Shown one piece after another: positions 1,406-32,562 of a stretch of 64,000 nucleotides of DNA (within the stretch, counting starts at the first letter, position 1; each line of letters opens with the position of its first letter). Source of the stretch: a virus. The notes beneath the pieces were generated by a model. That model was not told the DNA's origin. It saw only the letters and a list, made by a program, of their open reading frames with translations, and ran no database searches. The position numbers and the translations under genes are program-made. The stretch lies in IMG/VR virus record IMGVR_UViG_3300028920_000026, positions 64,001 to 128,000 of that record. One strand, written 5' to 3'.

Positions 1406-2599
1406 GTGCATCGATGGTCACAATACTTAAATTGTGACGATCGGAGTGCCATGTCAAAAAAGAGGATCTTGCTGCTTCCCACAGGAAGCAGGACACTTCA
1501 GGTTGAACTCATCTACCGTCACACGGCGATGGAAAACAATGTGTTCGTACCCAGGCAGGGGACAATCCTTCCCAACGTAAAGAAGAAACTCGACTGGTCT
1601 GGCATATCTGTGTGGCCTACGCTCCTTTCCTCATCACCAGAAACGGACGAACTGAATATTGATGGTCCCGCAAGGGACTATCGCGTCAAGCACGGAGAGG
1701 ATAGCTTCGTGTCTCGCCAAAGAGCGCAGTTCGGGACACACAGGCCCGAGATGAAGGTGACAATTGTTGATGCTACAGAAATCATCAACATGGAGTTTGA
1801 CCTTTGCCACGTGTTTCGTGGGACGGGTAAGGGGACGAGCATCGACATGGCCAGGCGTCACATCTTCGATAAAGGAAACGTCCGGCGCTGGATCACGAGT
1901 GAGATGCGACCTTACAAGTATGCTGACCTCGGAAGCGACATCCATGATGACTGTCTGATTACGCAACCGTCTCCTGACGATATCGGAGCAAAGTTCAAGC
2001 GTCGGTGGAACCTATTTCCTTCTCGCGCGCAGCTGGTGGCATTGAACCTTCCGGACGATGTTCTGAGAGCATCCCAGAGGACAGGACTTGCTGGTTTCAA
2101 CCACAATTACCAGCGCAGGTATCCCAAAGAGTCAAAGATGTTTCACAACGCTGCTTCAATGTTGAAGCAGCAAAAGCTCGGCAAACTCGTCAATTATGGG
2201 GCGAACAAGCCCGGCGTCGGTTCTGACATCAGGACATCAAGGCCAAATGAAGGTAAACCAACTATCTCGTGCCGAGAGGCACTCGACATGAAGCGATCGC
2301 TGCGGTGTGTCGTTCACCTGAAGGGTGGCGATGTTGGGGGCGGCGTTGTGTGGTACACGATGCTTGTCGGAACACCGATGATTGTCCTGAGACACTACTA
2401 TAAGTTTACGGGCATGTACCGCTACTTTGAGGACGGGAAACACTGCATCGTCATAGATGACGCAGCAGGAGTCGTCAAGGCGGCTAGGGAGCTCAACAAC
2501 GACGCGGTGCTTGATACTTTCATCGGAAATATCATTGATCTTCGCGATCGGCTATGTGGAGCCGGAGACCTAGAGAGGTTCGTCGATGGATGTGTATGA
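1406..2599 (+). CDS. hypothetical protein
   Basis: 397-aa ORF, divergent from the kinase-like gene. No motif recognised. True start may be an internal ATG (~1452). Confidence 0.45.
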   Translation: MHRWSQYLNCDDRSAMSKKRILLLPTGSRTLQVELIYRHTAMENNVFVPRQGTILPNVKKKLDWSGISVWPTLLSSSPETDELNIDGPARDYRVKHGEDSFVSRQRAQFGTHRPEMKVTIVDATEIINMEFDLCHVFRGTGKGTSIDMARRHIFDKGNVRRWITSEMRPYKYADLGSDIHDDCLITQPSPDDIGAKFKRRWNLFPSRAQLVALNLPDDVLRASQRTGLAGFNHNYQRRYPKESKMFHNAASMLKQQKLGKLVNYGANKPGVGSDIRTSRPNEGKPTISCREALDMKRSLRCVVHLKGGDVGGGVVWYTMLVGTPMIVLRHYYKFTGMYRYFEDGKHCIVIDDAAGVVKAARELNNDAVLDTFIGNIIDLRDRLCGAGDLERFVDGCV

Positions 2600-3164
2600 A
2601 CAAATGAAGGTGTTTGGCATCGGATTGAGCAAAACGGCAACGAAAAGCCTCAGCGAGGGACTCGGGATGCTTGGACTCAATTCAGTCCACTGCCCATTCG
2701 ATGACAATGCGTATGCTCAGATCCTTAAAGGAAACTTCGACCTTGATGTCTTCAAACGTTTTGATGCCGTTGCCGACATCCCATGCGCACTGTGCTTTGC
2801 GCAGCTTGATGTGCTGTACCCAAACGCAAAGTTTGTCCTTACTCAGCGCGAACGTAAAAGCTGGCTGGATTCGTGTGAAGAACACTTCACAAAGCGAAAC
2901 CCAAACAAGAGGTCTGAGCTCCTCCGCGTCGCCGTCTATGGATGCGGGAAGTTCAATAGAGACCGTTTCGATTGGGTGTACGACAACTACGTTGCTTCGG
3001 TCAGGCGGCACTTCGATGGCAGACAAGACAAGCTACTCGAACTCAATATAATCGCTGGAGAAGGTTGGGCCAAGCTGTGTAGATTCCTCGACAGTCCAGA
3101 GCCAAAGAGAGGATTTCCGAGGATCAAGAACCCGCGTCAGTTTACACAGGCAAGGAAGAAGTAA
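2586..3164 (+). CDS. sulfotransferase-family protein
   Basis: N-terminal KVFGIGLSKTATKSL resembles the PAPS-binding P-loop of Sulfotransfer-type enzymes. First gene of a tightly packed, overlapping sugar-modification operon. Confidence 0.5.
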   Translation: MDVYEQMKVFGIGLSKTATKSLSEGLGMLGLNSVHCPFDDNAYAQILKGNFDLDVFKRFDAVADIPCALCFAQLDVLYPNAKFVLTQRERKSWLDSCEEHFTKRNPNKRSELLRVAVYGCGKFNRDRFDWVYDNYVASVRRHFDGRQDKLLELNIIAGEGWAKLCRFLDSPEPKRGFPRIKNPRQFTQARKK

Positions 3165-4462
3165 TGTTTGAGGCAGATGACATCATCAATGCGATCAACG
3201 ACTGTCGCGTCAAGGTCGGTGTTGTGGGACTTGGATACGTTGGTCTTCCGCTTGCACTCGCGTTTGTAAAGTCGGGTATCCGTGTGTTTGGGTTCGATAC
3301 AAACAGCGAGAGGGCCTGGAAGATCGGCGCGGGTGAGTCACCGATGAGTCACATTAGCCATGACAGCGTCATGAATGCGCTGTCGAGCGGGCTTCTGAGG
3401 ATTTCGAACAAGGCAAATACGCTTGAAGAATGTGATGTCATCCTTGTTTGTGTGCCGACACCGCTTGGCAAGAAGGGCGATCCAAACCTCGAAAGCGTGA
3501 CTGATGTGGCAAGGACGATCGCCAGGTTGCCAATGAAACCACGTTTGATTGTCCTTGAATCGACGGTCTATCCAGGCGCAACAGAAGGCTCGTTCAAGGA
3601 CGCTCTTGAGGAGGGCGGCGCGCGATGCGGAGAAGACTTTCTACTTGCGTTCTCTCCTGAACGTGAGGATCCGGGAAATCCTGACTTCGGCACAACATCG
3701 ATCCCAAAGATCGTTGGTGGATTCGATGATGTGGCAACGAAGGTTGCAACAGCGTTCTATGATGTTGCGTTCAATATAGTTGTTCCAGTCGAATCGCCCA
3801 AGGTCGCTGAGGCTGCGAAGCTCCTCGAGAACACGTTTAGGATGGTCAACATCGCGCTAGTAAACGAGGTGAAGGTCGCGTTCTACAGGATGGGAATCGA
3901 TCCACTCAGCGTGATCGATGCAGCATCAACGAAACCCTTTGGGTTCATGCGGTTCGATCCTGGCCCAGGCGTCGGAGGACACTGCATTCCGATCGATCCG
4001 CACTACCTGAACTGGTCTGCTGATAGCTACGGTAGACGCATCAAGATGATCGATGTTGCAGCTCGTGTAAATGGAATGATGCCTGCATACGTCATTGACA
4101 GGATCCGTGTCGGGCTTGCGTCTCGTGGTGAGGCAATCAGAGGTTCTCGTATCCTCATCGTTGGTGTTGCATACAAGCGCGGCGTGGATGATGTTCGCGA
4201 GTCCCCCGCGCTGGCGCTTATCGAGGTGCTTCGCGGGTTCGGTGCAGAGGTTGAATACCACGATCCATTGGTAAAGAACCTCGAACTGGGGGAGCTCGAG
4301 TTTTCTAGCGTCCCGCTGAGCGACGTGTCAAAGTTTTCGGCTGCTGTTGTGGCTACAGATCAGGAGCGTGTTGATTGGAACGTCCTCATAGAGAACGCGA
4401 AGCTCGTCATCGACGCCAGAGGTGTCTACAGAGGCGACCATCAGAACCTGGTGAGAGCATGA
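3164..4462 (+). CDS. UDP-sugar 6-dehydrogenase (UDP-GlcNAc/ManNAc dehydrogenase family, WbpA/WecC-like)
   Basis: N-terminal Rossmann VGVVGLGYVGLPLA. Catalytic GGHCIPIDP cysteine motif. ESTVYPG motif. 432 aa, typical of UDP-glucose/GDP-mannose dehydrogenase family. Confidence 0.85.
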   Translation: MFEADDIINAINDCRVKVGVVGLGYVGLPLALAFVKSGIRVFGFDTNSERAWKIGAGESPMSHISHDSVMNALSSGLLRISNKANTLEECDVILVCVPTPLGKKGDPNLESVTDVARTIARLPMKPRLIVLESTVYPGATEGSFKDALEEGGARCGEDFLLAFSPEREDPGNPDFGTTSIPKIVGGFDDVATKVATAFYDVAFNIVVPVESPKVAEAAKLLENTFRMVNIALVNEVKVAFYRMGIDPLSVIDAASTKPFGFMRFDPGPGVGGHCIPIDPHYLNWSADSYGRRIKMIDVAARVNGMMPAYVIDRIRVGLASRGEAIRGSRILIVGVAYKRGVDDVRESPALALIEVLRGFGAEVEYHDPLVKNLELGELEFSSVPLSDVSKFSAAVVATDQERVDWNVLIENAKLVIDARGVYRGDHQNLVRA

Positions 4463-5550
4463 AAGTTCCGTACAACGACCTATCACGTGTCAATGGTGAG
4501 TTTGTCGAAGAATTTCTTGAAGATGTTGTAGACATCATCGAAGGATCTTCGATCATCGGTGGAAGACACGTCGAAGAATTTGAAACAAGGTTTGGAGAGA
4601 TGGTTGGTAGGCCTGCTGCGGGGGTTTCGAACGGCACAGACGCGTTGGCCGTCATACTTCGTGCCCTAGAACTCGAACCCAAGGATGACAGGTACATCTA
4701 CTATCCAGCGAACACGTTTATTGGGTCGATCCTGAGCGGGATCAATATGGGCTTCAAATTCAAGCCGTTCGATGTGGAATTAACAACGTTAAACGCTCCC
4801 AGATCGTTCAGGCCTCCAGACGACGCACAGGCCGTGGTGCTTGTTCACCTCTATGGGTATGGAGTCAAGGGAGCGGGAACGCTTGCGACGAGGTGTCGAA
4901 GCGCAGGAATTCCACTCATCGAAGACTGCTCACAATCACACTTTCAGAAGGTTTTGGGTAGGGACGTCGGTACGTTCGGAGACGCAGGCTTCTTTTCATG
5001 CTATCCTGGTAAGAACTTGGGTGCTCTTGGGGACGCTGGCGTCATCATTGGTAGCGACAGCCTTGTTGCAAAGGCAAAGGCGCTGCGAAGCTATGGGTGC
5101 GTCAAGAAGCACGGCTACGAGTATGTTGGGTTCAACCATAGACTCGATGCGATTCAAGCTGCGTTCTTGACGCACAAGCTGAAGTACTCGACGCTTGATA
5201 TCAGCATGCGCAGAGACGTCGTAGCCGATCTGCTTCGTGCATGTTCCGGCAACGATGACATCCTCTCACTCGACGTTGGAATAGACGAGAGCGTCTGGCA
5301 CGTGTTTCCGGTGCTCGTTGAAGACAGGAACGCGTTCATTGAACACATGGAAGCGCACGAAGTACAGTGCGTCATTCACTATCCGACGGTCATCCACAAG
5401 GAACATACGTTCTCTCGGTGGGTTGTAGACGTAGAGTGCCCGATCGCTGAATACGCTGCGAAGCATGTCGTTAGCATTCCGTGTCATGGGCGGATGAGGG
5501 ATGAGGAGGTAAAGGTTGTCTGCAAAGCTATCGATTCCTTTAGGAACTAA
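4459..5550 (+). CDS. DegT/DnrJ/EryC1/StrS-family sugar aminotransferase (WbpE-like)
   Basis: ATGA overlap with upstream gene. Motifs NDLSRVN, GTDAL, and NHRLDAIQAA (PLP-dependent sugar aminotransferase signatures). Length ~363 aa. Confidence 0.85.
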   Translation: MKVPYNDLSRVNGEFVEEFLEDVVDIIEGSSIIGGRHVEEFETRFGEMVGRPAAGVSNGTDALAVILRALELEPKDDRYIYYPANTFIGSILSGINMGFKFKPFDVELTTLNAPRSFRPPDDAQAVVLVHLYGYGVKGAGTLATRCRSAGIPLIEDCSQSHFQKVLGRDVGTFGDAGFFSCYPGKNLGALGDAGVIIGSDSLVAKAKALRSYGCVKKHGYEYVGFNHRLDAIQAAFLTHKLKYSTLDISMRRDVVADLLRACSGNDDILSLDVGIDESVWHVFPVLVEDRNAFIEHMEAHEVQCVIHYPTVIHKEHTFSRWVVDVECPIAEYAAKHVVSIPCHGRMRDEEVKVVCKAIDSFRN

Positions 5551-6343
5551 GGTCGGAATCGTCGGCCTCGGCTATTGGGGGTCTATTGTTCGTCGTGTCG
5601 TTGGCAAGGAAAACGTCCACATGACGTACGACGTGAAGTACGACCCTACGGAACGCTATGAGAAGCTGCTTGTTGATTGTACACATGTCATCGTCGCATC
5701 TCCGGCGACGACACACGTAAGCATCGTAAATGATGCGATCAAACATGGGTGCCATGTGTTCTGTGAGAAGCCCTTGGGTGTTCATTCTTACATCGCGGAA
5801 CAGGCGTTCGATCTTGCGTTAAAGCGAGGAACAAAGCTTCACGTTGATTGGGTGTTTCGATACAACGAACAGGTGAAGAAGATCGTTGAACTCGACTGGT
5901 CGCTGCGTCGAGCAGACATGCTGCGCTTGAACAACGGTCCAGCGCGCCAAGACGTTGATGCAAAGCACGACCTCATGTGCCACGATCTCTCGATCATCCA
6001 CGCGCTCATGGAGCCAGAACGCTTTGTCGGGATGCAGATCGAAAAAACACAGAACGTTGAACACACTGCATCGTGTAGGATGTACGACGGGATATCGGAC
6101 GTTCGCATGCATGCAAGCTGGAACTTTCCTGCGAAGGTAAGGACGTGCGTCTTTACGTTTGATGAGGGGATAGTCGTGTGGGATGATTCGACGGGAATAC
6201 TACGAGTCAACGGTGATGATGTACGGTGCGATGGAAATCCTCCACTTACAAACAGCCTAGAATCGTTCTTCAACCATGATACTACGAGGGCATCGTATGA
6301 CGTGACGGCATCAGTCCTCAGAACGCTAGAGCGCGTCAAATGA
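5516..6343 (+). CDS. Gfo/Idh/MocA-family NAD(P)-dependent sugar oxidoreductase (WbpB-like)
   Basis: N-terminal VGIVGLGYWG Rossmann. EKPL motif. 275 aa. Positioned between dehydrogenase, aminotransferase and transferase genes. Confidence 0.7.
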   Translation: MSAKLSIPLGTKVGIVGLGYWGSIVRRVVGKENVHMTYDVKYDPTERYEKLLVDCTHVIVASPATTHVSIVNDAIKHGCHVFCEKPLGVHSYIAEQAFDLALKRGTKLHVDWVFRYNEQVKKIVELDWSLRRADMLRLNNGPARQDVDAKHDLMCHDLSIIHALMEPERFVGMQIEKTQNVEHTASCRMYDGISDVRMHASWNFPAKVRTCVFTFDEGIVVWDDSTGILRVNGDDVRCDGNPPLTNSLESFFNHDTTRASYDVTASVLRTLERVK

Positions 6344-7218
6344 TAGACGGGTACAAGGTCTTCGTCTGCTCGTTCGTCAGCAACTCAGTGACGACCGGAT
6401 ACGGGCCGATGATCGCTCCCGCGGTGAACTCGTGGTGTGATGTTTCGTACGTCGATAGGGTCGTTCTAGTCGACGGGATGTCAGATGACGACACGCGCTT
6501 GCTCGTGCCCGCTGATAGAAAGGTATCGATCGTCGACGGTCCAAGGTGGCCTGTAGATTCATGGTCGTGGAGGAACGTTATTGATGCAGAAAATACATTC
6601 GTCCAGGCTGTGCTCGACGATCCCCACCCGCGCAAGGTGTTTGCATACATGTCTATTGACAACGTCCTCTACCGTGATCACGCTGACCTCGCTGCGATGA
6701 GTAGGAGGATGATCAAAGATGATTTTGACTTTGTGATGATGCGTTTCGACAAGGCGTTCACACCTGCATACATCACGACTGATTATCCAGTCATGCCATC
6801 GAAGAACTGGTACATCTGCACGGCGACGCGTGTTGACGAGCGTTTCAAACCCACCAAGATCATCAATGAATGTGCCATTGATTACGAAAAGGCGGGTAAG
6901 ATCAGGGGAACGACGCACAGATTCAAGAGCGCACCGGTGTCATACGACATGTTCTTCTTCACGCGAGAACACGTTGAAGCAAAGGCGCAGCGCCACGTAG
7001 GGTTCCAGAACATGAAGCGCAAACCAACAATCAGCGAGCTCGTCGACAAACAGATGTCGAAGCTCAGGAAGCGCGGGATCAAGCTTCGCAAGGTATTGAT
7101 CGAACAACATCCAGAACGTATGCACGATGTTCTACAAAATACCCTAAGTGCTGAACACTACGGTTACAGTATGTTTGGATTGGTTGAGGGGGCAACTAAT
7201 GGCCTGAAGATCGTATGA
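6340..7218 (+). CDS. putative glycosyltransferase (GT2-like nucleotide-diphospho-sugar transferase fold)
   Basis: VVLVDGMSDDDT segment resembles the GT2 DxD/DDGSTD region. Weak call. Overlapping start and stop with neighbours. Confidence 0.35.
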   Translation: MIDGYKVFVCSFVSNSVTTGYGPMIAPAVNSWCDVSYVDRVVLVDGMSDDDTRLLVPADRKVSIVDGPRWPVDSWSWRNVIDAENTFVQAVLDDPHPRKVFAYMSIDNVLYRDHADLAAMSRRMIKDDFDFVMMRFDKAFTPAYITTDYPVMPSKNWYICTATRVDERFKPTKIINECAIDYEKAGKIRGTTHRFKSAPVSYDMFFFTREHVEAKAQRHVGFQNMKRKPTISELVDKQMSKLRKRGIKLRKVLIEQHPERMHDVLQNTLSAEHYGYSMFGLVEGATNGLKIV

Positions 7219-7835
7219 AGAAAGATGTAGTCGTTCTTGGAAAAGGAAACCTTGCTGTCCATGTAGCAAAGTACTTCCACGAAAAGTCTGATGATTATCG
7301 CCTTGTCTGTGTTGTACCGAACGATGATGAACCTGCGTGGGCTGGTGCCAAGCTTGCGGACTACGCCTACTTCAGGGATATCCCATGTGTCACCGTAAAC
7401 GATATCACAAACATTGACATTGCGTTCTCTATCTACCACGACAGGATCCTTAAGAAGGACTTCATCGACAGATGTGGAAGGATCTTCAACTTACACAATG
7501 GACCGCTTCCAAGATACCGCGGCGTCAGACCAGTGAACTGGGCCTTGAAGAACGGCGAAAACGAACACGGCGTGACCATCCATGAGATCAGTCCAGGTAT
7601 CGACGACGGTCCCATCATTGCTCAGGTGAAGTTTTCAATTTACCCTGAGATCGATGAGGTTTGGGATGTCTACCTGCGGTGCCTCGCGTTTGGAAAGCAG
7701 CTATTCGATTCAACGATTGAACGTCTAAACGACATAATTCCTCGTCCTCAGGACCACGGTCAAGCGACGATCTACTACTCAAAGCAGAATCATCTGCTTG
7801 GTGATCGCACCGACTGGCGGCGATGGGTGCAGTAG
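7215..7835 (+). CDS. formyltransferase (Fmt/ArnA N-domain-like sugar N-formyltransferase)
   Basis: NLHNGPLPRYRGVRPVNWAL ... HGVTIHEI..GIDDGPIIAQ matches the formyl_trans_N catalytic core (HxSLLPxxRG ... D.G.I). Confidence 0.7.
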   Translation: MKKDVVVLGKGNLAVHVAKYFHEKSDDYRLVCVVPNDDEPAWAGAKLADYAYFRDIPCVTVNDITNIDIAFSIYHDRILKKDFIDRCGRIFNLHNGPLPRYRGVRPVNWALKNGENEHGVTIHEISPGIDDGPIIAQVKFSIYPEIDEVWDVYLRCLAFGKQLFDSTIERLNDIIPRPQDHGQATIYYSKQNHLLGDRTDWRRWVQ

Positions 7836-12368: not shown

Positions 12369-12912
12369 GTGCAGCTCGAAGGTCTGAGTTTTGCACACGA
12401 AACGTTGGTTCACAATTCAAACGCCCGTTATGTTCACGATGGGATGCGTCTCTGGGCGGGTTCAAGGACGTGTGTCAAGCGGTACGATGAAAACAATCTC
12501 TGGTAGAGGGTTGTCGATGAGCTCGCCCTCAACGATCGCCTCTCACGTGTGCCGCACAGAGTGTTCTTCGGTGAGGTGTTTGGTCAGGTACGACCATGAG
12601 AGGCACCACGTTGCGAGCCTTAGGGTGTTCGATGTGTTCAATGTCGTCGAAGGTCGATACCTCGATTACGATAAGGCTCGTGAGTTCGCGGACTTTGTTG
12701 GGCTCGACTGGGTGCCTGAACTGTTTAGAAGTCGCTGGTGTATCGCTCAGGAGAGCGATCTCTTATCCTTCTGCGAAGGACGGTCGATGATTGCATCAAA
12801 TGTTCGTGAGGGCTTTATCGTTAAGCCGCTGCGCGAGAGATACGATGATGAACTCGGGCGAGTTATCCTGAAGATGCGCGGTGAGGGCTTCCTCACCCGC
12901 AAGGGTGGTTGA
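12369..12912 (+). pseudogene. Rnl2-family RNA ligase remnant split over three reading frames
   Basis: Motif III-like VFFGEVFG (frame ending at the TGA ~12597). Motif IV EGFIVKP and motif V VILKMRGEGF in the 12391 ORF frame. The N-terminal frame ends at TAG ~12504. No intact KxDG lysine motif found. Confidence 0.5.
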
Positions 12913-14821: not shown

Positions 14822-15082
14822 TGTGTGGCGCTCATCTCGCTTCACTTCATTCGGAACAATGACTACCGTAACGCAAAAGAAGATCGCTTGGCGCAAAGAG
14901 CGTCAGGTCGAGATCTATGTTGCGGATAATCGCAAGCAGGAGGAAAAGGTCATCTAGATTCCGAGTTACACACAGACTTTGTCAAGGCTCGGAAGAAGAT
15001 TCCGAGCCTTGATGCGTTTTGGGTAGTTGAATGATAATGCATTCGTATTGGTTCGTTACCAAACTATCGCACCAATAAAGAA

Positions 15083-15104
15083 ATTTTTTCTTTGTTCCTT
15101 GACA
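15083..15104 (+). promoter_or_regulatory. conserved TTTGTTCCTTGACAAC motif 15 nt upstream of the first tRNA of array 1
   Basis: Same 16-mer recurs at 30750-30770, again 14-15 nt upstream of the first tRNA (tRNA-Pro) of array 2. Confidence 0.4.
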
Positions 15105-15118
15105 ACTTGTTCGTACTT

Positions 15119-15205
15119 TGGTGCAGTAGACTCGTATGGAGCGAGACCTGACTGTAAATCAGACATCATTGTGATCATCGATCGGTTCAATTCCGACCTG
15201 CACCA
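15119..15205 (+). tRNA. tRNA-Tyr (GTA), long variable arm
   Basis: Acceptor GGTGCAG/CTGCACC, anticodon loop CTGTAAA, long variable arm, T-loop GGTTCAATTCC. Confidence 0.6.
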
Positions 15206-15213
15206 CACCACAT

Positions 15214-15286
15214 TCCTCGGTAGCTCAACTGGTAGAGCGCCCGGCTGTTAACCAGGTGGTTGCAGGTTCGACTCCTGCCTGGGGAG
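15214..15286 (+). tRNA. tRNA-Asn (GTT)
   Basis: Acceptor TCCTCGG/CTGGGGA (2 GU), D-arm GCTCAACTGGTAGAGC, anticodon loop CTGTTAA, T-arm GCAGGTTCGACTCCTGC. Confidence 0.65.
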
Positions 15287-15368
15287 CTGAGAAATCACTC
15301 GTCAGTAACGTACGACGTAAAGGTCATTCTGAATGACTGAGAACGTGAAAAATGAGTGTAAATTCTCT

Positions 15369-15439
15369 TGGGGTTTAGTTTAATGGTAAAATGTCAGGCT
15401 CTGAACCTGAAGATCTGTGTTCGATTCACAGCACTCCAA
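15369..15439 (+). tRNA. tRNA-Gln (CTG)
   Basis: Anticodon stem TCAGG/CCTGA with loop CTCTGAA. T-arm CTGTGTTCGATTCACAG. One acceptor mismatch. Confidence 0.5.
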
Positions 15440-15486
15440 CAAAGCTAAAATGTCCACATTGTGATCATACGTTTACAAAACATGAC

Positions 15487-15559
15487 GGGCTAGTCGGTTA
15501 ATTGGTTAAACCACCAGACTCTTAATCTGGGACTGTGGGTTCGAGTCCCACCTGGCCTA
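15487..15559 (+). tRNA. tRNA-Lys (CTT)
   Basis: Acceptor GGGCTAG/CTGGCCT, D-stem GGTT/AACC, anticodon stem CCAGA/TCTGG loop CTCTTAA, T-arm GTGGGTTCGAGTCCCAC. Confidence 0.6.
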
Positions 15560-15638
15560 CAACGTTGAAATTTCTTTGACACTCGTGTGTAAAACTTGTA
15601 CACCAGTGGTACACTGAATGTAGGAGAAGCACAATACG

Positions 15639-15956
15639 TTGGTATCAATCACCAAACGGATTGGCATTATCGGTGAATTAGCGATTGCTCAAGATCTTGT
15701 TGTACGAGGTTTTGATGTCTTTACTTCGATAGGCGACAATTCAAAGGTAGATTTGGTTGCTTTACGTAAAACGCAAACGTTTCGCATTCAAGTAAAGACG
15801 GTCAAAAGGGTAACGAGCGTTGTTCCTGTTGTTGGATTGAAATACGTAGCAAGAAAACATGTCTTGTATAATACTGCAGATGTTGACGTAATTGCAATTT
15901 ATGTTATCGAACAACGCATTATCGCATACGTACCGATGCATGAGTTGATGACTTAG
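15639..15956 (+). CDS. YraN/UPF0102-like small PD-(D/E)xK nuclease
   Basis: IGELAIAQDLVVRGFDVF...SKVDLVAL matches the GxxxExxA...G....GE(I/V)DL(I/V)A core of YraN-family endonucleases. AT-rich island inside the tRNA array. RBS AGGAGA upstream. TTG start. Confidence 0.5.
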   Translation: MVSITKRIGIIGELAIAQDLVVRGFDVFTSIGDNSKVDLVALRKTQTFRIQVKTVKRVTSVVPVVGLKYVARKHVLYNTADVDVIAIYVIEQRIIAYVPMHELMT

Positions 15957-16045
15957 AACAAAACAGGTCAATGTCATTAAGGATAACTCAATCAAAAATT
16001 GTCAAATTAAGAGAATGAAGTATCTAAAAGATTATGTAGAATTTC

Positions 16046-16118
16046 CCCCACGTAGCGTAACGGATAGCACACCTGACTACGAATCAGGAGAGTGAAGGTT
16101 CGAATCCTTTCGTGGGGT
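16046..16118 (+). tRNA. tRNA-Arg (ACG)
   Basis: Acceptor CCCCACG/CGTGGGG, anticodon stem CCTGA/TCAGG loop CTACGAA (A34 would require deamination to I), T-arm GAAGGTTCGAATCCTTT. Confidence 0.7.
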
Positions 16119-16120
16119 CT

Positions 16121-16193
16121 GCGGAGGAGTGAAATGGTTTACACACTGGGCTCATAACCCAGGAACAGCGAGGTTCGACTCCCGTCTCCGCTA
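16121..16193 (+). tRNA. tRNA-like, anticodon CAT, defective T-stem (possible pseudo-tRNA)
   Basis: Acceptor GCGGAGG/TCTCCGC, anticodon stem CTGGG/CCCAG loop CTCATAA. The T-loop TTCGACT is present but flanking bases form only 2-3 bp. D-stem also poor. Confidence 0.35.
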
Positions 16194-16195
16194 CG

Positions 16196-16396
16196 ATGGC
16201 ATTTATAAGGAAAAAGAAGCTGCAGGATGATGAAGGCTCAAAGAGAGAGGAGGTTCCGTTCGATATCGTAGAAAAGGAGGTTACGATGTCAGATGGTTCT
16301 GTCATCAGCTTTCCGGTGAAGGTCTACAACACTCTTGATCCACACCGGAATGTGCAGGGAGCTGCACAGCCGACGAATGCGTGGACTCATGAGTAG
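16196..16396 (+). CDS. hypothetical small protein
   Basis: 66-aa ORF starting at ATG immediately after a tRNA-like gene. Could be spurious. Confidence 0.2.
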   Translation: MAFIRKKKLQDDEGSKREEVPFDIVEKEVTMSDGSVISFPVKVYNTLDPHRNVQGAAQPTNAWTHE

Positions 16397-16399
16397 TAT

Positions 16400-16473
16400 T
16401 GGCACATGGTGTAGGTGGTTTCGCACGCCTGCCTGATAAGCAGGAAGATAGGGTTCAACTCCCTGTGTGCCAA
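16400..16473 (+). tRNA. tRNA-Ile (GAT)
   Basis: Acceptor TGGCACA/TGTGCCA, anticodon stem CCTGC/GCAGG loop CTGATAA, T-arm TAGGGTTCAACTCCCTG. Confidence 0.65.
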
Positions 16474-16728
16474 CTCTGCGAAGTAACCGAGCTCTTAGCG
16501 AGCAGTAGAACTACATGGTGTAATGTTTGCATACCAGGCGGAAACCTGGCGGTGTGGGATTCGAACTCCGCTGCAAGAAGGTGAACAGGCAGACACTCTA
16601 CAACGTAGAAGTGTTTAGATAGATCGGTGCTGTGTCATCCGCGTCGAGCGGGATCCCGCAGGTGTAGCAAACCTGCTCTTTGTCGGCGTAATAGCGTGGT
16701 TCAAGTACAGGCCACGTCACGTAAAATT

Positions 16729-16803
16729 GGTCCTATCGTCTAGTCCGGTCAGGACGCCAGACTCTCACTCTGGAAACGGCGGGTTCAAATCCCCCTAGGG
16801 TCA
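16729..16803 (+). tRNA. tRNA-Glu (CTC)
   Basis: Layout parallels E. coli tRNA-Glu (GGTCCTA TC GTCT ... GGAC). Anticodon stem CCAGA/TCTGG loop CTCTCAC. T-loop TTCAAAT. Confidence 0.6.
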
Positions 16804-16963
16804 CGGGTGGTTGGCTTCGAAAAAACGACAAGAAGGACGGGTCCAGCGCGTCTAACTCTTCTAGATGCAACGGGAACGGGTTGTTTTTCGGTGGGTTCGA
16901 TTCCCACTCGCCCAGCCATTTGGCTCCGTTTAATTCCCCTCGGAACTACGACAAGTAACCGTC

Positions 16964-17036
16964 AAATCGTTTAGTGTAGTGGACGCACCGTTGGCTCATA
17001 CCCAACAAGGTCAGGTTCGATTCCTGTAACAGTAGT
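16964..17036 (+). tRNA. tRNA-like with anticodon CAT (Met/Ile2-type), imperfect acceptor
   Basis: D-arm GTGTAGTGGACGCAC, anticodon stem GTTGG/CCAAC loop CTCATAC, T-loop GGTTCGATTCC. Acceptor pairing weak. Confidence 0.4.
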
Positions 17037-17049
17037 GAAAGTCAGCTAT

Positions 17050-17122
17050 GGGTCGTTGGTGTAACGGTTTAGCATTTCGGTTTCCAAGTCCGAAGATCAA
17101 GGTTCAAATCCTTGGCGACCTG
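17050..17122 (+). tRNA. tRNA-Trp (CCA)
   Basis: Acceptor GGGTCGT/GCGACCT, anticodon loop TTCCAAG between TCGGT/TCCGA, T-arm CAAGGTTCAAATCCTTG. Confidence 0.65.
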
Positions 17123-17283
17123 CGATTATATCGACGATGTAACAAGTGTTTCTACATGGAAGTAGCTTCTGGGTGTGAAAGGAGACCAACCCTTGCGACC
17201 TTCAATCGCGGAATCTTGGTCATCAGCGTGGAGCGTTCAGATGTTGTACATTAGCGGTTGTCTCGGTCTTTTTCTCCCTGAAT

Positions 17284-17354
17284 GGGTCACTGGTGCAACG
17301 GCAGCATAGCTGGCTCTTACCCAGTCGATCTCGGTTCGAATCCGAGGTGACCCA
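17284..17354 (+). tRNA. tRNA-Lys (CTT), second copy
   Basis: Acceptor GGGTCAC/GTGACCC, anticodon stem GCTGG/CCAGT loop CTCTTAC, T-arm CTCGGTTCGAATCCGAG. Confidence 0.55.
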
Positions 17355-17355
17355 C

Positions 17356-17427
17356 TGCGCGATGGAGCAGCCCGGTATTGCCAGTCTCATAAGCTGGAGG
17401 TCGCAGGTTCGAATCCTGCTCGCGCAA
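17356..17427 (+). tRNA. tRNA-Met (CAT), fMet-like D-arm
   Basis: Acceptor TGCGCGA/TCGCGCA, GAGCAGCCCGGTA D-region like initiator tRNA, anticodon stem CCAGT/GCTGG loop CTCATAA, T-arm GCAGGTTCGAATCCTGC. Confidence 0.55.
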
Positions 17428-17431
17428 CAAT

Positions 17432-17507
17432 GCCGATGTAGTTCAGCTACGAGAGAGCGACGGGCGTCCTGGCCCGTGAGTCCCTGGTGCAACCTCAGGC
17501 CTCGGCG
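17432..17507 (+). tRNA. atypical tRNA-like gene with 8-nt anticodon loop and variant T-loop
   Basis: Acceptor GCCGATG/CCTCGGC (6/7 bp), D-arm GTTCAGCTACGAGAGAGC, anticodon stem ACGGG/CCCGT enclosing CGTCCTGG (8 nt), T-arm CCTGG-TGCAACC-TCAGG (G55 instead of T55). Confidence 0.35.
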
Positions 17508-17586
17508 CGGCGATCTAGCGAAATGACATCACACTGGTATGCATAGGACCAGGTTCCTAGTTTGAGCCTGGGGATCGCCACAATGT

Positions 17587-17659
17587 GTCTCCGTAACTCA
17601 GTGGACAGAGTGCCACGCTTCGAACGTGGTGGACGTGGGTTCGAATCCTACCGGGGATG
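17587..17659 (+). tRNA. tRNA-Arg (TCG)
   Basis: Acceptor GTCTCCG/CGGGGAT, D-arm ACTCAGTGGACAGAGT, anticodon stem CCACG/CGTGG loop CTTCGAA, T-arm GTGGGTTCGAATCCTAC. Confidence 0.7.
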
Positions 17660-17801
17660 CGGTTATAACGAAGTAACAGTACCCTCTCACGTTAAGAGAG
17701 GGCATACCCAAGGTGAAAGGTCTCCGGCTATGATTATTTGGGTCCTTGTCCGGTTCGACAGAGGCGCAAGCAGGGGTGTTGAGACCTCTGGCCCAGCAGT
17801 A

Positions 17802-17874
17802 TGGGGCTGTAACTCAATTGGGAGAGTGCCAGCTTTGCAAGCTGGAAGTTGCGGGTTCGAACCCCGCCTGCTCC
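17802..17874 (+). tRNA. tRNA-Ala (TGC)
   Basis: Acceptor GGGGCTG with the G3:U70 Ala identity pair. Anticodon stem CCAGC/GCTGG loop TTTGCAA. T-arm GCGGGTTCGAACCCCGC. Confidence 0.7.
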
Positions 17875-18043
17875 ACTGGTGATGAGTAACTCTCGGATCG
17901 CTGGAACGTCCGGACCTAACGCAAGAGGTCGAATGTGAAAGTCACCAATAATCTCAAGTGTCTGTGGATGACAGGAGGATCTGTTAGTGCTGCAGATACG
18001 ACAAGTAACCTAACAAACGGGCCCGGCGGAGGATGCCGGTGGA

Positions 18044-18067
18044 CTGCACTTCGGTGCAGCGTGTTTT
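18044..18067 (+). terminator. terminator-like hairpin with TTCG tetraloop and T-run
   Basis: CTGCAC-TTCG-GTGCAG followed by CGTGTTTT, located inside the tRNA array just upstream of tRNA-Asp. Confidence 0.4.
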
Positions 18068-18082
18068 GGAGGTGAAAGTGTT

Positions 18083-18154
18083 GGTTCCGTCGTTTAGTGG
18101 TTAGGACATCTCCCTGTCACGGAGAAGACGAGGGTTCGATTCCCTTCGGGACCG
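18083..18154 (+). tRNA. tRNA-Asp (GTC), CCA encoded
   Basis: Acceptor GGTTCCG/CGGGACC, anticodon stem TCTCC/GGAGA loop CTGTCAC, T-arm GAGGGTTCGATTCCCTT, then GCCA. Confidence 0.7.
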
Positions 18155-18197
18155 CCAAGCCTTTTTAGAGGGAGCTCTGTACGAACAAGTTGTTGGC

Positions 18198-18408
18198 AAT
18201 CGAGCAGACCGGGTGATCGCCTGATTCGTCAGGAGGAAAGTCCGGGCACCGTAGAGTAGGACGCCAGATAACGCCTGGGTACAGTGATGTACATCGACGC
18301 AACAGAAAGTAAACCGCCTTCGGGTAGCTGCTTGAACCTATCTGTGAGGATCGGCCTAGATGAATGATCACCCTCGACAGAATCCGGCTTACAGGTCGGC
18401 TCGAAGCC
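18198..18408 (+). ncRNA. rnpB: RNase P RNA, bacterial type A catalytic domain only (no specificity domain), ~205 nt
   Basis: AGGAGGAAAGTCCGGGCACC (CR-I/P4 5' strand), GGACGCCAGATAACGCCTGGG (P15), CAACAGAAAGTAAACCGCC (cf. E. coli CAACAGAGAGCAAACCGCC), GGCCTAGATGAATGA (CR-IV/P4 3' strand), CGACAGAATCCGGCTTACAGGTCGGCTCGA (CR-V plus P1 3' strand). P1 TCGAGCAGACC/GGTCGGCTCGA. P2 GGGTGATC/GATCACCC. P3 CCTGA-TTCG-TCAGG. AAACCGCC is joined to GGTAGCTGCTTGAACC by a TTCG tetraloop where E. coli has the ~150-nt P9-P14 region. Confidence 0.8.
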
Positions 18409-30680: not shown

Positions 30681-30735
30681 CAGGGCGTAGCGTAAATTGG
30701 GGACGTGTCTGTAGGTTCGATTCCTGCCGCCTTGG
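30681..30735 (+). tRNA. anticodon-arm-less tRNA-like minihelix (~55 nt)
   Basis: Acceptor CAGGGCG/CGCCTTG (7 bp), TA, D-arm GCGT-AAATTGGGG-ACGT, then directly T-arm GTAGG-TTCGATT-CCTGC. No anticodon stem-loop. Confidence 0.35.
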
Positions 30736-30749
30736 CTGATAAAGGAAGA

Positions 30750-30770
30750 AAATTCCTTTGTTCCTTGACA
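30750..30770 (+). promoter_or_regulatory. conserved TTTGTTCCTTGACAAC motif upstream of tRNA array 2
   Basis: Identical 16-mer to 15089-15104. tRNA-Pro starts 14 nt downstream. Confidence 0.4.
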
Positions 30771-30784
30771 ACCTACATTCTCTT

Positions 30785-30858
30785 CGGGGCGTAGCTCAGT
30801 CTGGTAGAGCACGTGCTTTGGGAGCACGGAGTCGCACGTTCGATTCGTGTCGCCCCGA
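30785..30858 (+). tRNA. tRNA-Pro (TGG)
   Basis: Acceptor CGGGGCG/CGCCCCG, D-arm GCTCAGTCTGGTAGAGC, anticodon stem CGTGC/GCACG loop TTTGGGA, T-arm GCACGTTCGATTCGTGT. Confidence 0.7.
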
Positions 30859-31022
30859 CATAAGCCTATGTTTTGAGCATTTTTCTGTACCAACAGATTG
30901 TTGAATCCTATTCACTGCACCATCGAGAATCTACTCATGCCTACCCTGTCATGTCACTCCGATCAAGGCGCAATAGTGATGCGCTTTCCAATTCTGCCGA
31001 TGGCTCATGACTCGTTTTCGGC

Positions 31023-31268
31023 GTGAATAAGGAGAGTTTTGACTTGTCGGCCAGCCAAACTGCAGTGCGTATTTTGAACAGTCTGTCTGGGGTCTTCGTT
31101 GACAAGGTTTTACAGGCTGAAGATGCACACCAGGTGTTCGTTCGTGCTCGATTCGAGCCCACCAGCCTGCGCAGAATCCAAGCGAGGTTTCAAGCAGAGT
31201 TGGGACTCAACGACGCGCACGTGGTGCGCGTGCCCCCAACGCTTCAAAGGAATCCTCGCCTGATTTGA
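31023..31268 (+). CDS. hypothetical small protein
   Basis: 81-aa ORF between tRNA genes. Weak. Confidence 0.3.
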   Translation: MNKESFDLSASQTAVRILNSLSGVFVDKVLQAEDAHQVFVRARFEPTSLRRIQARFQAELGLNDAHVVRVPPTLQRNPRLI

Positions 31269-31330
31269 TGTGATGATATGGTATCGGTGGGCCTGTAGAG
31301 CATCAGCACTGTTCCGGGACGCACACACAT

Positions 31331-31403
31331 TAGGGTGTAATGTCAGCGGCAGACGGCCTCCCTTGGAAGGAGGAGGACGTGGGTTCGAGTCCCACCTCCC
31401 TGA
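31331..31403 (+). tRNA. tRNA-Pro (TGG)-like, imperfect acceptor
   Basis: Anticodon stem CCTCC/GGAGG loop CTTGGAA, D-stem TGTC/GACG, T-arm GTGGGTTCGAGTCCCAC. Acceptor TAGGGTG/CTCCCTG has a mismatch. Confidence 0.5.
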
Positions 31404-31405
31404 CG

Positions 31406-31942
31406 ATGTTGAATGATCTAAAATGGGTACGAGTCATTGAACCACACAGGACGATCGCAAGGCAGTTTGCGCACATGCAGGGTCTTTCGATGAAACATCA
31501 CGGAAAGGACTATGACGATTGGAGGAACGTTCAGGGTATGCTCGGTGAGGTCGTCCTTGCACAGATGCTCGGTTGTCTAAAGACGTGGCGCGAACACAAG
31601 GTTGAAACGCTCGCTTTGGACGCAGCATGGGACGGTGGGTACGACATGGCCTTCAACAATGTTCGTATCGATTGTAAGACGATCGCGTTCAGAAACCCGA
31701 ACAAGGTCGCCGACCTTCACCTTTACAGGGGCGACCACGAAGGCTGCGATGTGTATGCAGCGATGCTGATCAACGAGGCTGAACTCATGAGAGAGAAGGA
31801 CCTCCATAGCATCGATTGGATCGACAAGGTCTGGTGTGCAGGGTGGATAAACAGAAACTCGTTCACACAGCGTCACATGGGAAGGCTGCGTTTTCCATTT
31901 AAGGGTCTTCAACGCATAGATGAAATGGTTTTGTCGCGGTAG
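31406..31942 (+). CDS. hypothetical protein
   Basis: ATG right after the tRNA. 178 aa. Stop overlaps the tRNA-Phe 5' end. Confidence 0.5.
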   Translation: MLNDLKWVRVIEPHRTIARQFAHMQGLSMKHHGKDYDDWRNVQGMLGEVVLAQMLGCLKTWREHKVETLALDAAWDGGYDMAFNNVRIDCKTIAFRNPNKVADLHLYRGDHEGCDVYAAMLINEAELMREKDLHSIDWIDKVWCAGWINRNSFTQRHMGRLRFPFKGLQRIDEMVLSR

Positions 31943-32005
31943 CTCAGTTGGTAGAGCGCCTGCCTGAAGAGCAGGGCGTCGGGGGTTCGAACCCCTCCCG
32001 CGGCA
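31933..32005 (+). tRNA. tRNA-Phe (GAA)
   Basis: Acceptor GTCGCGG/CCGCGGC, D-arm GCTCAGTTGGTAGAGC, anticodon stem CCTGC/GCAGG loop CTGAAGA, T-arm GGGGGTTCGAACCCCTC. Confidence 0.7.
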
Positions 32006-32028
32006 CAGAATGGATACTTATCGTCAGA

Positions 32029-32562
32029 ATGGCAAAGAAGGACGACAAGGAGGTTGTGCCTGTCAACTTGATCAGCCCAAGCGAATCGAACTGGCCAAAA
32101 AAGAGCGTGACAAGTGCAAGCGACTGGCTGAAGAACTGGGCTGGGTTGCTGACTGCCGTCGCCGCGCTGCTGGCATCAGGCGGAACATACCTGCGTCCTT
32201 CGGAGGATCCAAAGTACAAGGAGTCGTATGAAGTTCTAAAGGAAAGGTACGACGATCAAGTCGAGGATATCGAAAGGCTCGAATCAAACGTCAAGTACCT
32301 CTATAGGCTTCGAGAGGAAGAGGACAGGACAAGACGAGTTGCGGCTACGCTTGAAACGTCAGCGTATGAGATCGAGGACAACATCCTCCGGCGGGAGCTC
32401 GAAACAAGGTACGGTAAGAAGTTCGCTGATGAGTACATGGACAAACGAGCAAAGAATAGGCGAGAGATCAGACAGGAATATGTAGGGAAGCTCAATAGGA
32501 AGCCACCGAGGGTACATGACACAATAGGCAAGAAGCTTCCACCCTATGGGCAGAAGGAATGA
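32029..32562 (+). CDS. membrane-anchored coiled-coil protein
   Basis: ATG 32029. TM segment WAGLLTAVAALLASGG followed by charged helical region. Confidence 0.5.
   Translation: MAKKDDKEVVPVNLISPSESNWPKKSVTSASDWLKNWAGLLTAVAALLASGGTYLRPSEDPKYKESYEVLKERYDDQVEDIERLESNVKYLYRLREEEDRTRRVAATLETSAYEIEDNILRRELETRYGKKFADEYMDKRAKNRREIRQEYVGKLNRKPPRVHDTIGKKLPPYGQKE

Follow-up and report, generated by a model that had tools for sequence, protein, structure and literature searches.

A stretch of 64,000 nucleotides (nt) of viral DNA, positions 64,001 to 128,000 of IMG/VR record IMGVR_UViG_3300028920_000026 and here called the window, carries two arrays of transfer RNA (tRNA) genes on the same strand of a myovirus-like phage of ~331 kb. 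Judged from the sequence, it is probable (about 0.8) that these arrays give the phage a decoding pool of its own together with aids to tRNA maturation. As gene clusters they are a further example of those known from huge phages, which are accompanied by HNH or PD-(D/E)XK nucleases, RNA ligases and a release factor; the observation made in a preliminary description of this DNA is correct and ordinary in kind. Their interest is raised by the reduced RNase P RNA beside array 1, of a kind that recurs without annotation in the tRNA arrays of phages, and by the paired repeats and the gene ends at C74. This maturation hardware could matter more than the arrays themselves.

Two tRNA arrays on one strand

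At default settings ARAGORN called 37 tRNA genes, all on the plus strand, 13 at 15214-18157 and 24 at 30785-43955, and called none in 20 dinucleotide shuffles of the window. Rfam gave 33 tRNA matches at the gathering score and 34 with permissive filters; 30 coincide with ARAGORN calls and four are found by Rfam only (16120-16193 and 36914-36985, both CAT; 35958-36029, His GTG; 34248-34312, GGT-like). Lowering the ARAGORN threshold to 90% (-ps90), a setting that yields ~1 call per 64 kb of shuffled sequence over both strands, added 15120-15206, 17432-17508, 17509-17581 (CAT) and 42989-43076, all within the arrays and on the plus strand, and allowing introns added 42150-42249. The union of detectors comes to ~46 tRNA and tRNA-like genes, 37 of high confidence and ~9 weaker or non-canonical, in good agreement with the ~45 first described; the ARAGORN run did not recover far fewer. 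At least four more remnants retain a recognisable T arm (16834-16918, 30690-30740, 35108-35170 and 37010-37081). Array 1 holds 17 elements in 3.0 kb (~5 per kb) and array 2 ~28 in 13.2 kb (~2 per kb), so that both are clusters by the definition of Morgado and Vicente (at least two tRNAs per kb on one strand).

Every anticodon listed in the preliminary description was recovered, with Leu-TAA (32731) and Ile-TAT (43879) in addition. Coverage of all 20 amino acids, also claimed there, is firm for 19 at default settings and rests for Tyr on one non-canonical class II gene. The members are given below; ‘both’ stands for detection by ARAGORN and Rfam, and ORF for open reading frame.

Array 1
15121-15206, +, tRNA-Tyr-like class II gene, non-canonical: loop CTGTAAA (GTA), A73, C74, 4-nt connector before the D stem
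15214-15287, +, tRNA-Asn GTT; both
15369-15440, +, tRNA-Gln CTG; both
15487-15560, +, tRNA-Lys CTT; both
15639-15956, +, PD-(D/E)XK endonuclease ORF; PF11645, E 1.8e-16
16046-16119, +, tRNA-Arg ACG; both
16120-16194, +, CAT tRNA with initiator hallmarks: U1xU72 mismatch, GGG/CCC anticodon stem, G8; Rfam
16400-16474, +, tRNA-Ile GAT; both
16507-16582, +, weak tRNA-like remnant, read by eye, without a stable fold
16729-16804, +, tRNA-Glu CTC; both
16834-16918, +, tRNA-like remnant with canonical T arm GGTGG-GTTCGATT-CCCAC; ARAGORN -ps80
16965-17035, +, CAT tRNA, acceptor stem with 5/7 pairs, no C74; ARAGORN, Rfam (34 bits)
17050-17123, +, tRNA-Trp CCA; both
17284-17355, +, tRNA-Lys CTT, copy 2; both
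17356-17428, +, tRNA-Met CAT (elongator or Ile2 type), 1 nt past the previous tRNA; both
17432-17508, +, tRNA-like element: 6-nt ‘anticodon’ loop, T loop TGCAACC; ARAGORN -ps90
17509-17581, +, tRNA-like element: perfect acceptor stem, loop TGCATAG (G33), T loop TTTGAGC, fold z -3.4; ARAGORN -ps90
17587-17660, +, tRNA-Arg TCG; both
17803-17876, +, tRNA-Ala TGC, G3:U70; both
18083-18157, +, tRNA-Asp GTC, CCA encoded; both

Array 2
30785-30859, +, tRNA-Pro TGG; both
31331-31404, +, tRNA-Pro TGG, copy 2; both
31933-32006, +, tRNA-Phe GAA, U8-A9-G10 being the TAG stop of the upstream ORF; both
32561-32633, +, tRNA-Cys GCA; both
32731-32814, +, tRNA-Leu TAA, class II, acceptor stem with 5/7 pairs, no C74; ARAGORN, no Rfam match
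32831-32903, +, tRNA-Thr GGT; both
34248-34312, +, tRNA-like element: 4-bp acceptor stem, 6-nt loop ATGGTA, T loop ATCGAAG; Rfam (38.7 bits)
34335-34410, +, tRNA-Thr CGT, CCA encoded; both
34412-34485, +, tRNA-Thr TGT; both
34513-35100, +, HNH endonuclease ORF, AT-rich
35108-35170, +, tRNA-like remnant with canonical T arm, lying after the stop of the HNH ORF and ahead of the next ORF's ribosome-binding site
35958-36029, +, tRNA-His GTG, G-1 encoded, U73; Rfam only (41.7 bits)
36531-36602, +, tRNA-His GTG, no encoded G-1, A73; ARAGORN, Rfam with permissive filters
36807-36881, +, tRNA-Leu CAG in class I shape: 4-nt variable loop, Leu-type D loop CAACTGGCAGA, A73; both
36914-36986, +, CAT tRNA (elongator Met or Ile2 type); Rfam
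37106-37765, +, short RF1 (release factor) homologue of 219 residues: PPT and GGQ (SGPGGQ) motifs, domain 1 missing
38863-38948, +, tRNA-Leu GAG, class II; both
39625-39697, +, tRNA-Arg CCT; both
39896-39970, +, tRNA-Arg TCT; both
40397-40472, +, tRNA-Val GAC, G8, C33, CCA encoded; ARAGORN, no Rfam match
40475-40548, +, tRNA-Val CAC, G8; ARAGORN, no Rfam match
40581-40655, +, tRNA-Val TAC; both
40656-40747, +, tRNA-Ser TGA, CCA encoded; both
41199-41288, +, tRNA-Ser GGA, unusual long D arm; ARAGORN, matching the tRNA-Sec model only, weakly
42061-42149, +, tRNA-Ser GCT, 3-nt connector, paralogue of 41199 and 42483; ARAGORN
42150-42249, +, Ser-like class II tRNA-like RNA: ‘anticodon’ arm of an 8-bp stem and 5-nt loop, fold z -4.1; ARAGORN -i
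42483-42571, +, tRNA-Ser CGA; ARAGORN, no Rfam tRNA match
42715-42787, +, tRNA-Gly GCC; both
42791-42865, +, tRNA-Gly TCC; both
42890-42975, +, tRNA-Leu CAA, class II, outside the bracketing repeat described below; both
42989-43076, +, very weak tRNA-like call, acceptor stem with 4/7 pairs, odd T loop; ARAGORN -ps90
43879-43955, +, tRNA-Ile TAT, reading ATA, 3-nt connector; ARAGORN, no Rfam match

Array 2 is, as far as gene content and order can tell, an old syntenic feature of this phage lineage. Relatives of its embedded release factor lie on 29 IMG/VR contigs, and the best homologue is 67% identical. L036 (handles of this form denote loci compared here) is the best large relative, its release factor being 67% identical. 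The tRNA order of L036 is that of the window (Pro-Pro-Phe-Cys-His-Leu-Met...Leu-Arg-Val-Val-Ser-Gly-Gly...Leu), and so is the order of the release factor, an unannotated 449-residue ORF (at the position of the RnlA-like ligase of the window), a deaminase and tail-fibre-like genes. The tRNA sequences of the two syntenic contigs are too diverged to be paired up.

The non-canonical members noted in the preliminary description are real: odd connectors, loops and D arms, as well as G8 or C33, are seen in several genes. The Tyr-like gene went uncalled at default by ARAGORN and Rfam, and -ps90 reads it as ‘Phe AAA’ in another register; the Tyr reading, with CTCG/CGAG as D stem, was made by eye. Three paralogous Ser genes (GGA, GCT and CGA) have long D arms and touch the tRNA-Sec model only, weakly. 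Four elements (17432, 17509, 34248 and 42150) lack any standard decoding route, and 17432-17508 is probably not a decoder. We rejected a reading of 42150-42249 as a Tyr tRNA with a 4-nt ‘intron’: its arm forms an 8-bp stem capped by a 5-nt loop, and bacterial tRNA introns are group I introns. The function of the Leu-TAA gene at 32731 is doubtful, and the call at 42989-43076 is probably a relic or a false positive. Two hallmarks of initiator tRNAs, a U1xU72 mismatch and three G:C pairs in the lower part of the anticodon stem, are shown by the CAT gene at 16120. The tRNA-Arg ACG requires A34-to-I editing to read CGU, CGC and CGA. The G3:U70 pair of tRNA-Ala and the class I shape of Leu-CAG, both pointed out earlier, were read directly from the sequence and from the 4-nt variable loop, respectively. 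The two embedded nucleases are likewise present, the PD-(D/E)XK ORF being probably a mobile nuclease and the HNH ORF probably a homing nuclease.

Several further features of the members may be recorded here. The window holds two tRNA-His designs, one with G-1 opposite U73 (35958) and one with A73 and no G-1 (36531); the latter design is known in some Alphaproteobacteria. Class I-length tRNAs with Leu anticodons occur repeatedly in large phages that are not related to each other, namely in the window (36807-36881), L016 (9376-9449 and 13357-13431), L053 (2461-2695) and phage A3Wally (genes of 72-74 nt). A Leu-type D loop and A73 are common to those of the window and L016; the L053 case is assigned by length and that of A3Wally by annotation only. 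Five ORFs of array 2, ending at 31942, 32562, 35965, 39634 and 39905, overlap the next tRNA by 2-10 nt, and in three of the five the TAG stop is U8-A9-G10 of the tRNA, so that excision would take away the stop codon. In such overlaps the integrity of the messenger RNA and the release of the tRNA would compete on one transcript. A spacer module also recurs, in which AAGTAACC (at ~16480, 16952, 17668, 18002, 34233 and 35097) is followed by a structured or tRNA-like segment and, ~50-75 nt downstream, by (A)GGTGAA(A/C). The 13-mer ACGACAAGTAACC occurs twice exactly, and GGTGAAAG stands 4-10 nt ahead of several tRNA 5' ends.

A reduced RNase P RNA recurs in phage tRNA arrays

The RNase P RNA named in the preliminary description, which follows array 1, matches RF00010 at 118.5 bits, against a gathering score of 100, over model positions 1-367. 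It measures 207 nt instead of ~370 nt. Helices P1-P4, the P4 strands (CR-I and CR-V) and the J18/2 stretch are kept, while deletions remove 85 model positions from the specificity domain (P7-P14, with CR II and CR III) and 52 from the CCA-binding region P15-P17/L15. Judged by this alignment, the window RNA is a reduced derivative of bacterial type A RNase P RNA and not a standard member of that class.

We scanned IMG/VR with a pattern that places the two P4 strands at unusually short spacing (gaps of 116-206 nt). Of 14 loci found, 12 (11 distinct sequences, L037 and L041 being the same) hold an RF00010-like RNA of ~209-270 nt, which with the window makes 13 loci. Support for these 12 takes the form of scores of 63.5 bits or of 50-85 bits, or of nhmmer E values from 1e-7 to 1e-25. 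All 12 are nested in co-oriented tRNA arrays, often with only 0-3 nt to the adjacent tRNAs. Among cultured phages, blastn led to a further, 216-nt copy (nhmmer E 8.6e-49) in Microbacterium phage A3Wally, where it fills exactly the unannotated gap between two tRNA-Pro genes of an array that also contains HNH endonucleases and an RNA ligase. Because all copies except that of the window score below the Rfam gathering threshold, routine annotation misses them. The RNAs are the following ((-) marks the minus strand).

Window, 18201-18407, +, 207 nt, type A core
L033, 676-884 (-)
L037, 4368-4594 (-)
L038, 1410-1666
L039, 8917-9151
L040, 5635-5877
L041, 8569-8795
L042, 1206-1465
L043, 2248-2468 (-)
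L051, 3884-4140 (-)
L052, 437-705
L053, 5401-5637 (-)
L054, 3604-3864
A3Wally (L049), 2314-2529, at ~93853-94068 of MZ150783.1

The pattern matches in L032 and L034 were rejected as chance-like, having no Rfam match; L032 resembles coding DNA. A strict RNase P pattern gave no viral match, and the short-spacing pattern with a gap of 86-116 nt gave none either. A match in ‘Microcystis phage MaAM05’ was also discarded: it lies among fabI, engB and mtgA, and its P4 strands, ~290 nt apart, have the spacing of a normal bacterial RNase P RNA. This part of the record (L050, MW495066.1 112823-117868) looks like bacterial DNA inside an INPHARED phage record.

Within the reduced RNAs, the P4 strands GAGGAAAGTCCGG and ACAGAA.CCGGCTTA are invariant in eight aligned sequences, with one covarying pair. 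RNAalifold on a MAFFT alignment recovered P4 only, and P1 and P2 were tested by permuting self against cross pairing. Among 10 distinct sequences the 3' strands of P1 and P2 pair with their own 5' region at -12 kcal/mol compared with -6 kcal/mol for cross pairs; none of 10,000 permutations reached the observed self-pairing energy. These comparisons indicate that the reduced RNase P RNAs are conserved structured RNAs and not debris.

We suggest, with slightly less than even confidence, that large phages carry a minimal RNase P ribozyme within a tRNA array, on the same strand, where tRNA processing would release it, and that it could mature non-canonical tRNAs and lessen dependence on the host RNase P RNA. 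In the phage of the window the same tentative module would also include leader-trailer stems and C74-only ends. An RNA that has lost the elbow-reading domain would be well matched to tRNAs whose T and D loops are unusual. A full-text literature search, whose incomplete coverage makes its silence absence of evidence only, returned no description of a phage-encoded RNase P RNA. To our knowledge, minimal RNase P ribozymes have so far been engineered constructs or have come from one archaeal lineage (type T) only. If the RNAs are active, minimal RNase P ribozymes of bacterial type would be available in nature from phages, and phage tRNA supply would extend beyond genes to processing. This is directly testable, as A3Wally, which grows on Microbacterium foliorum, carries a copy.

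The nearest likeness is the type T RNase P RNA of Pyrobaculum and its relatives (Lai et al. 2010, summarised in PMC7191817), which also has ~200 nt, keeps the catalytic domain and has nearly lost the specificity domain. Type T RNA is archaeal and chromosomal, and its cells have no other RNase P RNA, whereas the phage RNAs derive from bacterial type A, come as extras and lie between tRNA genes.

Ends of genes and borders of arrays

C74 is encoded in 34 of 37 genes and the full CCA in four (18083, 34335, 40397 and 40656), which bears out the earlier remark that some genes encode CCA. Five neighbouring pairs of tRNA or tRNA-like genes are spaced by one C (at 16119, 17355, 17508, 40655 and 42149). 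With C74 encoded without CCA and these single-C junctions, the upstream neighbour ends in N73-C74; an RNase P cut of the downstream tRNA would therefore leave the upstream one as a substrate for the CCA-adding enzyme. Gene ends differ among relatives: all genes of L003, L006 and L033 encode CCA, those of L016, L017 and L023 mostly have T, and nearly all genes of L036 show a mixture of C, CC and CCA.

Both arrays open with similar sequences and are bracketed by complementary ones, as follows.

14980-15014, +, terminator-like hairpin, 15-bp stem and T run, ending the upstream unit before array 1
15077-15093, +, AT-rich hairpin or palindrome AAAGAAA-TTT-TTTCTTT, ahead of array 1
15091-15106, +, shared 16-mer TTTGTTCCTTGACAAC, copy 1, exact
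15102-15116, +, 5' arm of the array 1 bracket, ACAACTTGTTCGTAC, starting inside the 16-mer
18179-18193, +, 3' arm of the array 1 bracket, GTACGAACAAGTTGT, complementary to 15102-15116 at 15/15 positions
30741-30761, +, AT-rich hairpin AAAGGAAG-AAAA-TTCCTTT, ahead of array 2
30757-30772, +, shared 16-mer TTTGTTCCTTGACAAC, copy 2, exact
30767-30790, +, 5' arm of the array 2 bracket, starting inside the 16-mer
42862-42885, +, 3' arm of the array 2 bracket, complementary to 30767-30790 at 22/24 positions, with a 19-nt perfect core

The AT-rich hairpins of the two arrays show compensatory changes between them. In the window the 16-mer is found in exact form only at these two places, which lie 14 and 12 nt ahead of the first tRNA, and its core is absent from all other loci compared. 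The sequence CCTTGACAAC, if up to one mismatch is allowed, has 16 occurrences in the window where 5.3 are expected, and may mark a promoter element for the RpoD-like sigma factor of the phage. Scans for sigma-70-type promoters and terminators within the arrays stayed at chance level.

When joined in modelled duplexes, the bracket arms fold at -23.8 kcal/mol (array 1) and -44.6 kcal/mol (array 2). Outside the shared sequence the arms of the two arrays differ, yet each pair stays complementary. The array 1 bracket closes 8 nt ahead of the RNase P RNA, that of array 2 between Gly-TCC and Leu-CAA. Since perfect 15-nt repeats are also found elsewhere in the window by chance, the argument for the brackets rests on their position, not their length. 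A bracketing repeat is absent from six other arrays (L036, L033, L037, L038, L042 and L043), which speaks against any general role.

In bacterial ribosomal RNA (rRNA) operons, leader-trailer processing stems are RNase III sites. By analogy, we favour an RNA-level leader-trailer stem as the reading of the brackets, at a little under an even chance. The likeness lies in complementary sequences kilobases apart around a block of stable RNA on one transcript; the differences are that the window stems would enclose tRNAs in loops of 3.1 and 12.1 kb, that their cleavage is putative and that the repeats are absent from related arrays. Repeats acting at the DNA level, by inversion or as terminal repeats, are an unlikely alternative, and paired regulatory sites an equally unlikely one. 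Contigs from SRR8554435 agree with the window base for base wherever they overlap it; their breaks fall within tRNAs, so that they are uninformative on inversion.

Decoding capacity

Codon usage was taken from 64 ORFs of the window and compared with the anticodon set under conservative wobble rules. The set reads 89.6% of phage codons, or ~94% once U34 is taken to read all four bases of the Ala and Pro boxes, as is required for GCY and CCY to be read. Lys (two CTT copies, 15487 and 17284), Glu (CTC, 16729) and Gln (CTG, 15369) are represented by C34 isoacceptors only; no U34 tRNA for these three amino acids and no Leu-TAG was found in the window, which leaves AAA, GAA, CAA and CTA to the host. 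The same C34-only pattern is seen in L036, whereas more distant relatives have C34 and U34 types. U34 species need complex wobble modification and are classic targets of anticodon nucleases. GAA is the commonest Glu codon of the phage; AAG and CAG are its preferred Lys and Gln codons. This preference fits the view that phage tRNAs would top up codons poorly read by the host.

A proposed decoding pool with aids to maturation

The proposed course of events is as follows. Each array would be transcribed as one or a few long precursors, in which RNase P cuts the 5' ends; the phage RNA of 207 nt, a catalytic domain only, probably contributes, presumably with host RnpA. Each cut that frees a downstream 5' end would leave the upstream tRNA at N73-C74, to be completed by the CCA-adding enzyme without a 3' nuclease. 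The mature tRNAs would form a phage pool decoding ~90-94% of codons and favouring G-ending Lys and Gln codons, and with this pool the phage would sustain its translation where the host's tRNAs are scarce, broken down or under attack. Repair of cleaved tRNAs would fall to the two RNA ligases. Homing-type nucleases would explain the spread and turnover of the arrays, leaving several decayed copies. The C74-only ends and the paired leader-trailer repeats predict how a tRNA precursor of 3-12 kb would be cut up.

Several points weigh against this account. Neither rnpA nor a gene for a CCA-adding enzyme was seen in the window. A sigma-70-type promoter could not be placed, as the TTGACA in the 16-mer has no matching -10 element at 16-18 nt. 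The four codons unread by the window set make up ~6% of codons. The Rfam tRNA model, even at E = 1, leaves seven of the 37 ARAGORN calls unmatched; with features such as G8, C33, mismatched acceptor stems or odd D arms, some of the seven may be inactive. The analysis covers a 64-kb window of a 331-kb phage contig, with 10 kb upstream that was searched for tRNAs and contained none.

Alternative explanations

The arrays could serve mainly to evade host defence, the phage replacing cleaved or depleted host tRNAs, altered loops and arms resisting nucleases and tRNA-like elements acting as decoys. We regard this as a possible account, held with distinctly less confidence than a decoding pool. Anticodon nucleases usually target Lys-UUU, Glu-UUC and Gln-UUG, and these are exactly the tRNAs missing from the window; a polynucleotide kinase/phosphatase partner for the ligases was not found among the window ORFs scanned. 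What recommends evasion is the frequency of odd loops (C33 in Val-GAC, G33 in 17509, and loops of 5-6 nt in 17432, 34248 and 42150) and the two RNA ligases flanking the arrays. Precedents exist in phage tRNAs whose altered anticodon loops let them escape host nucleases (PMC10264068) and in huge phages with ligases for cleaved tRNAs (PMC7162821). Evasion is compatible with a decoding pool and not exclusive of it. That the arrays are instead largely selfish or decaying DNA, in which homing endonucleases spread blocks and duplication and decay turn a sizeable share of the ~46 genes into pseudogenes, is improbable. Such a history would account for the PD-(D/E)XK and HNH ORFs, for at least eight degenerate tRNA-like elements or remnants and for the fast divergence of tRNAs between syntenic relatives, and the long array of Anabaena has three pseudogene-like genes among 26 (PMC8421152). 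It is at odds with 30 genes passing both detectors with canonical features, with a gene order shared with L036 despite sequence divergence and with C74 in nearly all genes, which argues for selection on processing; several odd members, too, keep perfect acceptor stems and C74.

Two other explanations are very improbable. Bacterial chromosomes and plasmids carry arrays of 26-43 tRNA genes (PMC8421152, PMC5966550), so that a long bacterial array (L-array or tRNA array unit) might have been mis-binned as viral. Against this, the contig carries baseplate-wedge and tail-fibre genes within a distance of 5-20 kb, relatives occur on IMG/VR viral contigs, including the syntenic L036 with matching structural genes, and family searches showed no ribosomal or housekeeping genes among the window proteins. 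A switch of the genetic code late in infection, by suppressor tRNAs and a phage release factor, is brought to mind by the RF1 homologue embedded in array 2 and by the CTA-anticodon tRNAs of the more distant relatives L016 and L027; ARAGORN at default found no CTA, TCA or TTA anticodon in the window, and structural ORFs of 942-1398 residues are open under the standard code. A phage decoding pool with maturation aids remains our preferred reading.

Comparison with known systems

Phage T4, whose tRNA region is cited in PMC8421152 and PMC6409571, has a polycistronic tRNA cluster processed by RNase P, with some genes lacking CCA, the homing nuclease SegB embedded and an RnlA-type ligase in the genome; it encodes eight tRNAs and uses the host RNase P RNA. 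The window shares with it the embedded nuclease, the CCA-less genes and, putatively, the RnlA-type ligase, and differs in having its own RNase P RNA and no kinase partner found in the window. Huge phages carry up to 67 tRNAs, RF1/RF2 and tRNA ligases (Al-Shayeb et al. 2020, PMC7162821). The likeness is close: genomes above 200 kb known from metagenomes only, dozens of tRNAs distinct from those of the host, RF1/RF2 homologues, tRNA ligases and a sigma factor. That paper does not mention RNase P, nor does it describe bracketing repeats or C74-only ends. The arrays add an example to the pattern that bigger phages carry more translation apparatus.

Morgado and Vicente (2019, PMC6409571) surveyed viral clusters with 15-37 tRNA genes, of which eight cover all 20 isotypes. 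Phage clusters with nucleases of HNH or Seg type embedded are documented (PMC6409571, PMC8421152). Those of mycobacteriophages and Streptomyces phages resemble the window arrays in being dense and on one strand, some with all 20 isotypes and with HNH genes inside; the window differs in having two arrays, many intervening ORFs, many non-canonical members and an attached RNase P RNA. Bacterial L-arrays such as the Anabaena trn operon (PMC8421152) comprise 23-43 tRNA genes, have spread horizontally and include some pseudogenes and a homing endonuclease. Their setting is a chromosome or a plasmid, with induction by translational stress, whereas the window arrays are set in a phage.

Release factor, RNA ligases and deaminase

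The release factor named in the preliminary description is an RF1 homologue in array 2 that lacks domain 1. It aligns to residues 152-318 of Thermus thermophilus RF1, ~150 N-terminal residues of RF1 having no counterpart, and its NCBIfam scores are far under the cut-offs; a full RF1 has four domains and ~360 residues. The family comprises more than 3,300 short homologues of ~170-220 residues, many on contigs of 100-450 kb, and several IMG/VR members sit within tRNA arrays.

The RNA ligases reported earlier correspond to two family matches.

12391-12912, +, RNA ligase family protein; PF09414
44761-46002, +, T4 RnlA-like RNA ligase; PF09511 E 1.2e-8, TIGR02308 73.6 bits, under the cut-off of 242

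A deaminase gene is present as described; it matches dCMP/cytidine deaminases and, weakly, ComEB, with nothing tying it to tRNA. No TadA family model matched, and we rejected it as a tRNA-editing enzyme. With four codons left unread, a non-canonical Tyr gene, a shortened RF1 and a deaminase that looks like one of nucleotide metabolism, the ‘unusually complete translation toolkit’ of the preliminary description is an overstatement.

Genome context and relatives

By its gene content the carrier is a huge, myovirus-like metagenomic phage without a close sequenced relative. The release factor protein of the window occurs, identical in sequence, on an ENA contig of 331,213 bp (ERZ27252253, k141_1101516) and on a Logan contig of the sample SRR8554435. 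INPHARED yielded no relative by megablast of 14-20 kb or by tblastn of a 501-residue structural protein, and the sigma factor as a probe found none in IMG/VR. The UDP-glucose dehydrogenase is at most 44% identical to proteins of Chloroflexota and other genomes and is uninformative for host assignment.

A minus-strand block at 46-64 kb encodes the baseplate-wedge and tail-fibre proteins (PHROG matches). The plus-strand block encodes the RpoD-like sigma factor, an ATP-dependent DNA ligase, a NADAR protein, a YspA/SLOG protein, a methyltransferase, a sugar-nucleotide modification cluster and the two RNA ligases. The sugar-nucleotide cluster (2586-7835) consists of a sulfotransferase, the UDP-glucose dehydrogenase, a DegT-type aminotransferase, an oxidoreductase and an ArnA-like formyltransferase. 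We rejected the last as a Met-tRNA formyltransferase, given its place in this cluster and its equal match to ArnA.

GOLLD RNAs and transfer-messenger RNAs (tmRNAs), neither of which occurs in the window, are embedded in tRNA arrays of related or RNase P-bearing viral contigs, at the following loci.

L016, 15787-16249
L017, 577-932
L039, 2438-2853 and 6827-7195
L040, 1-209

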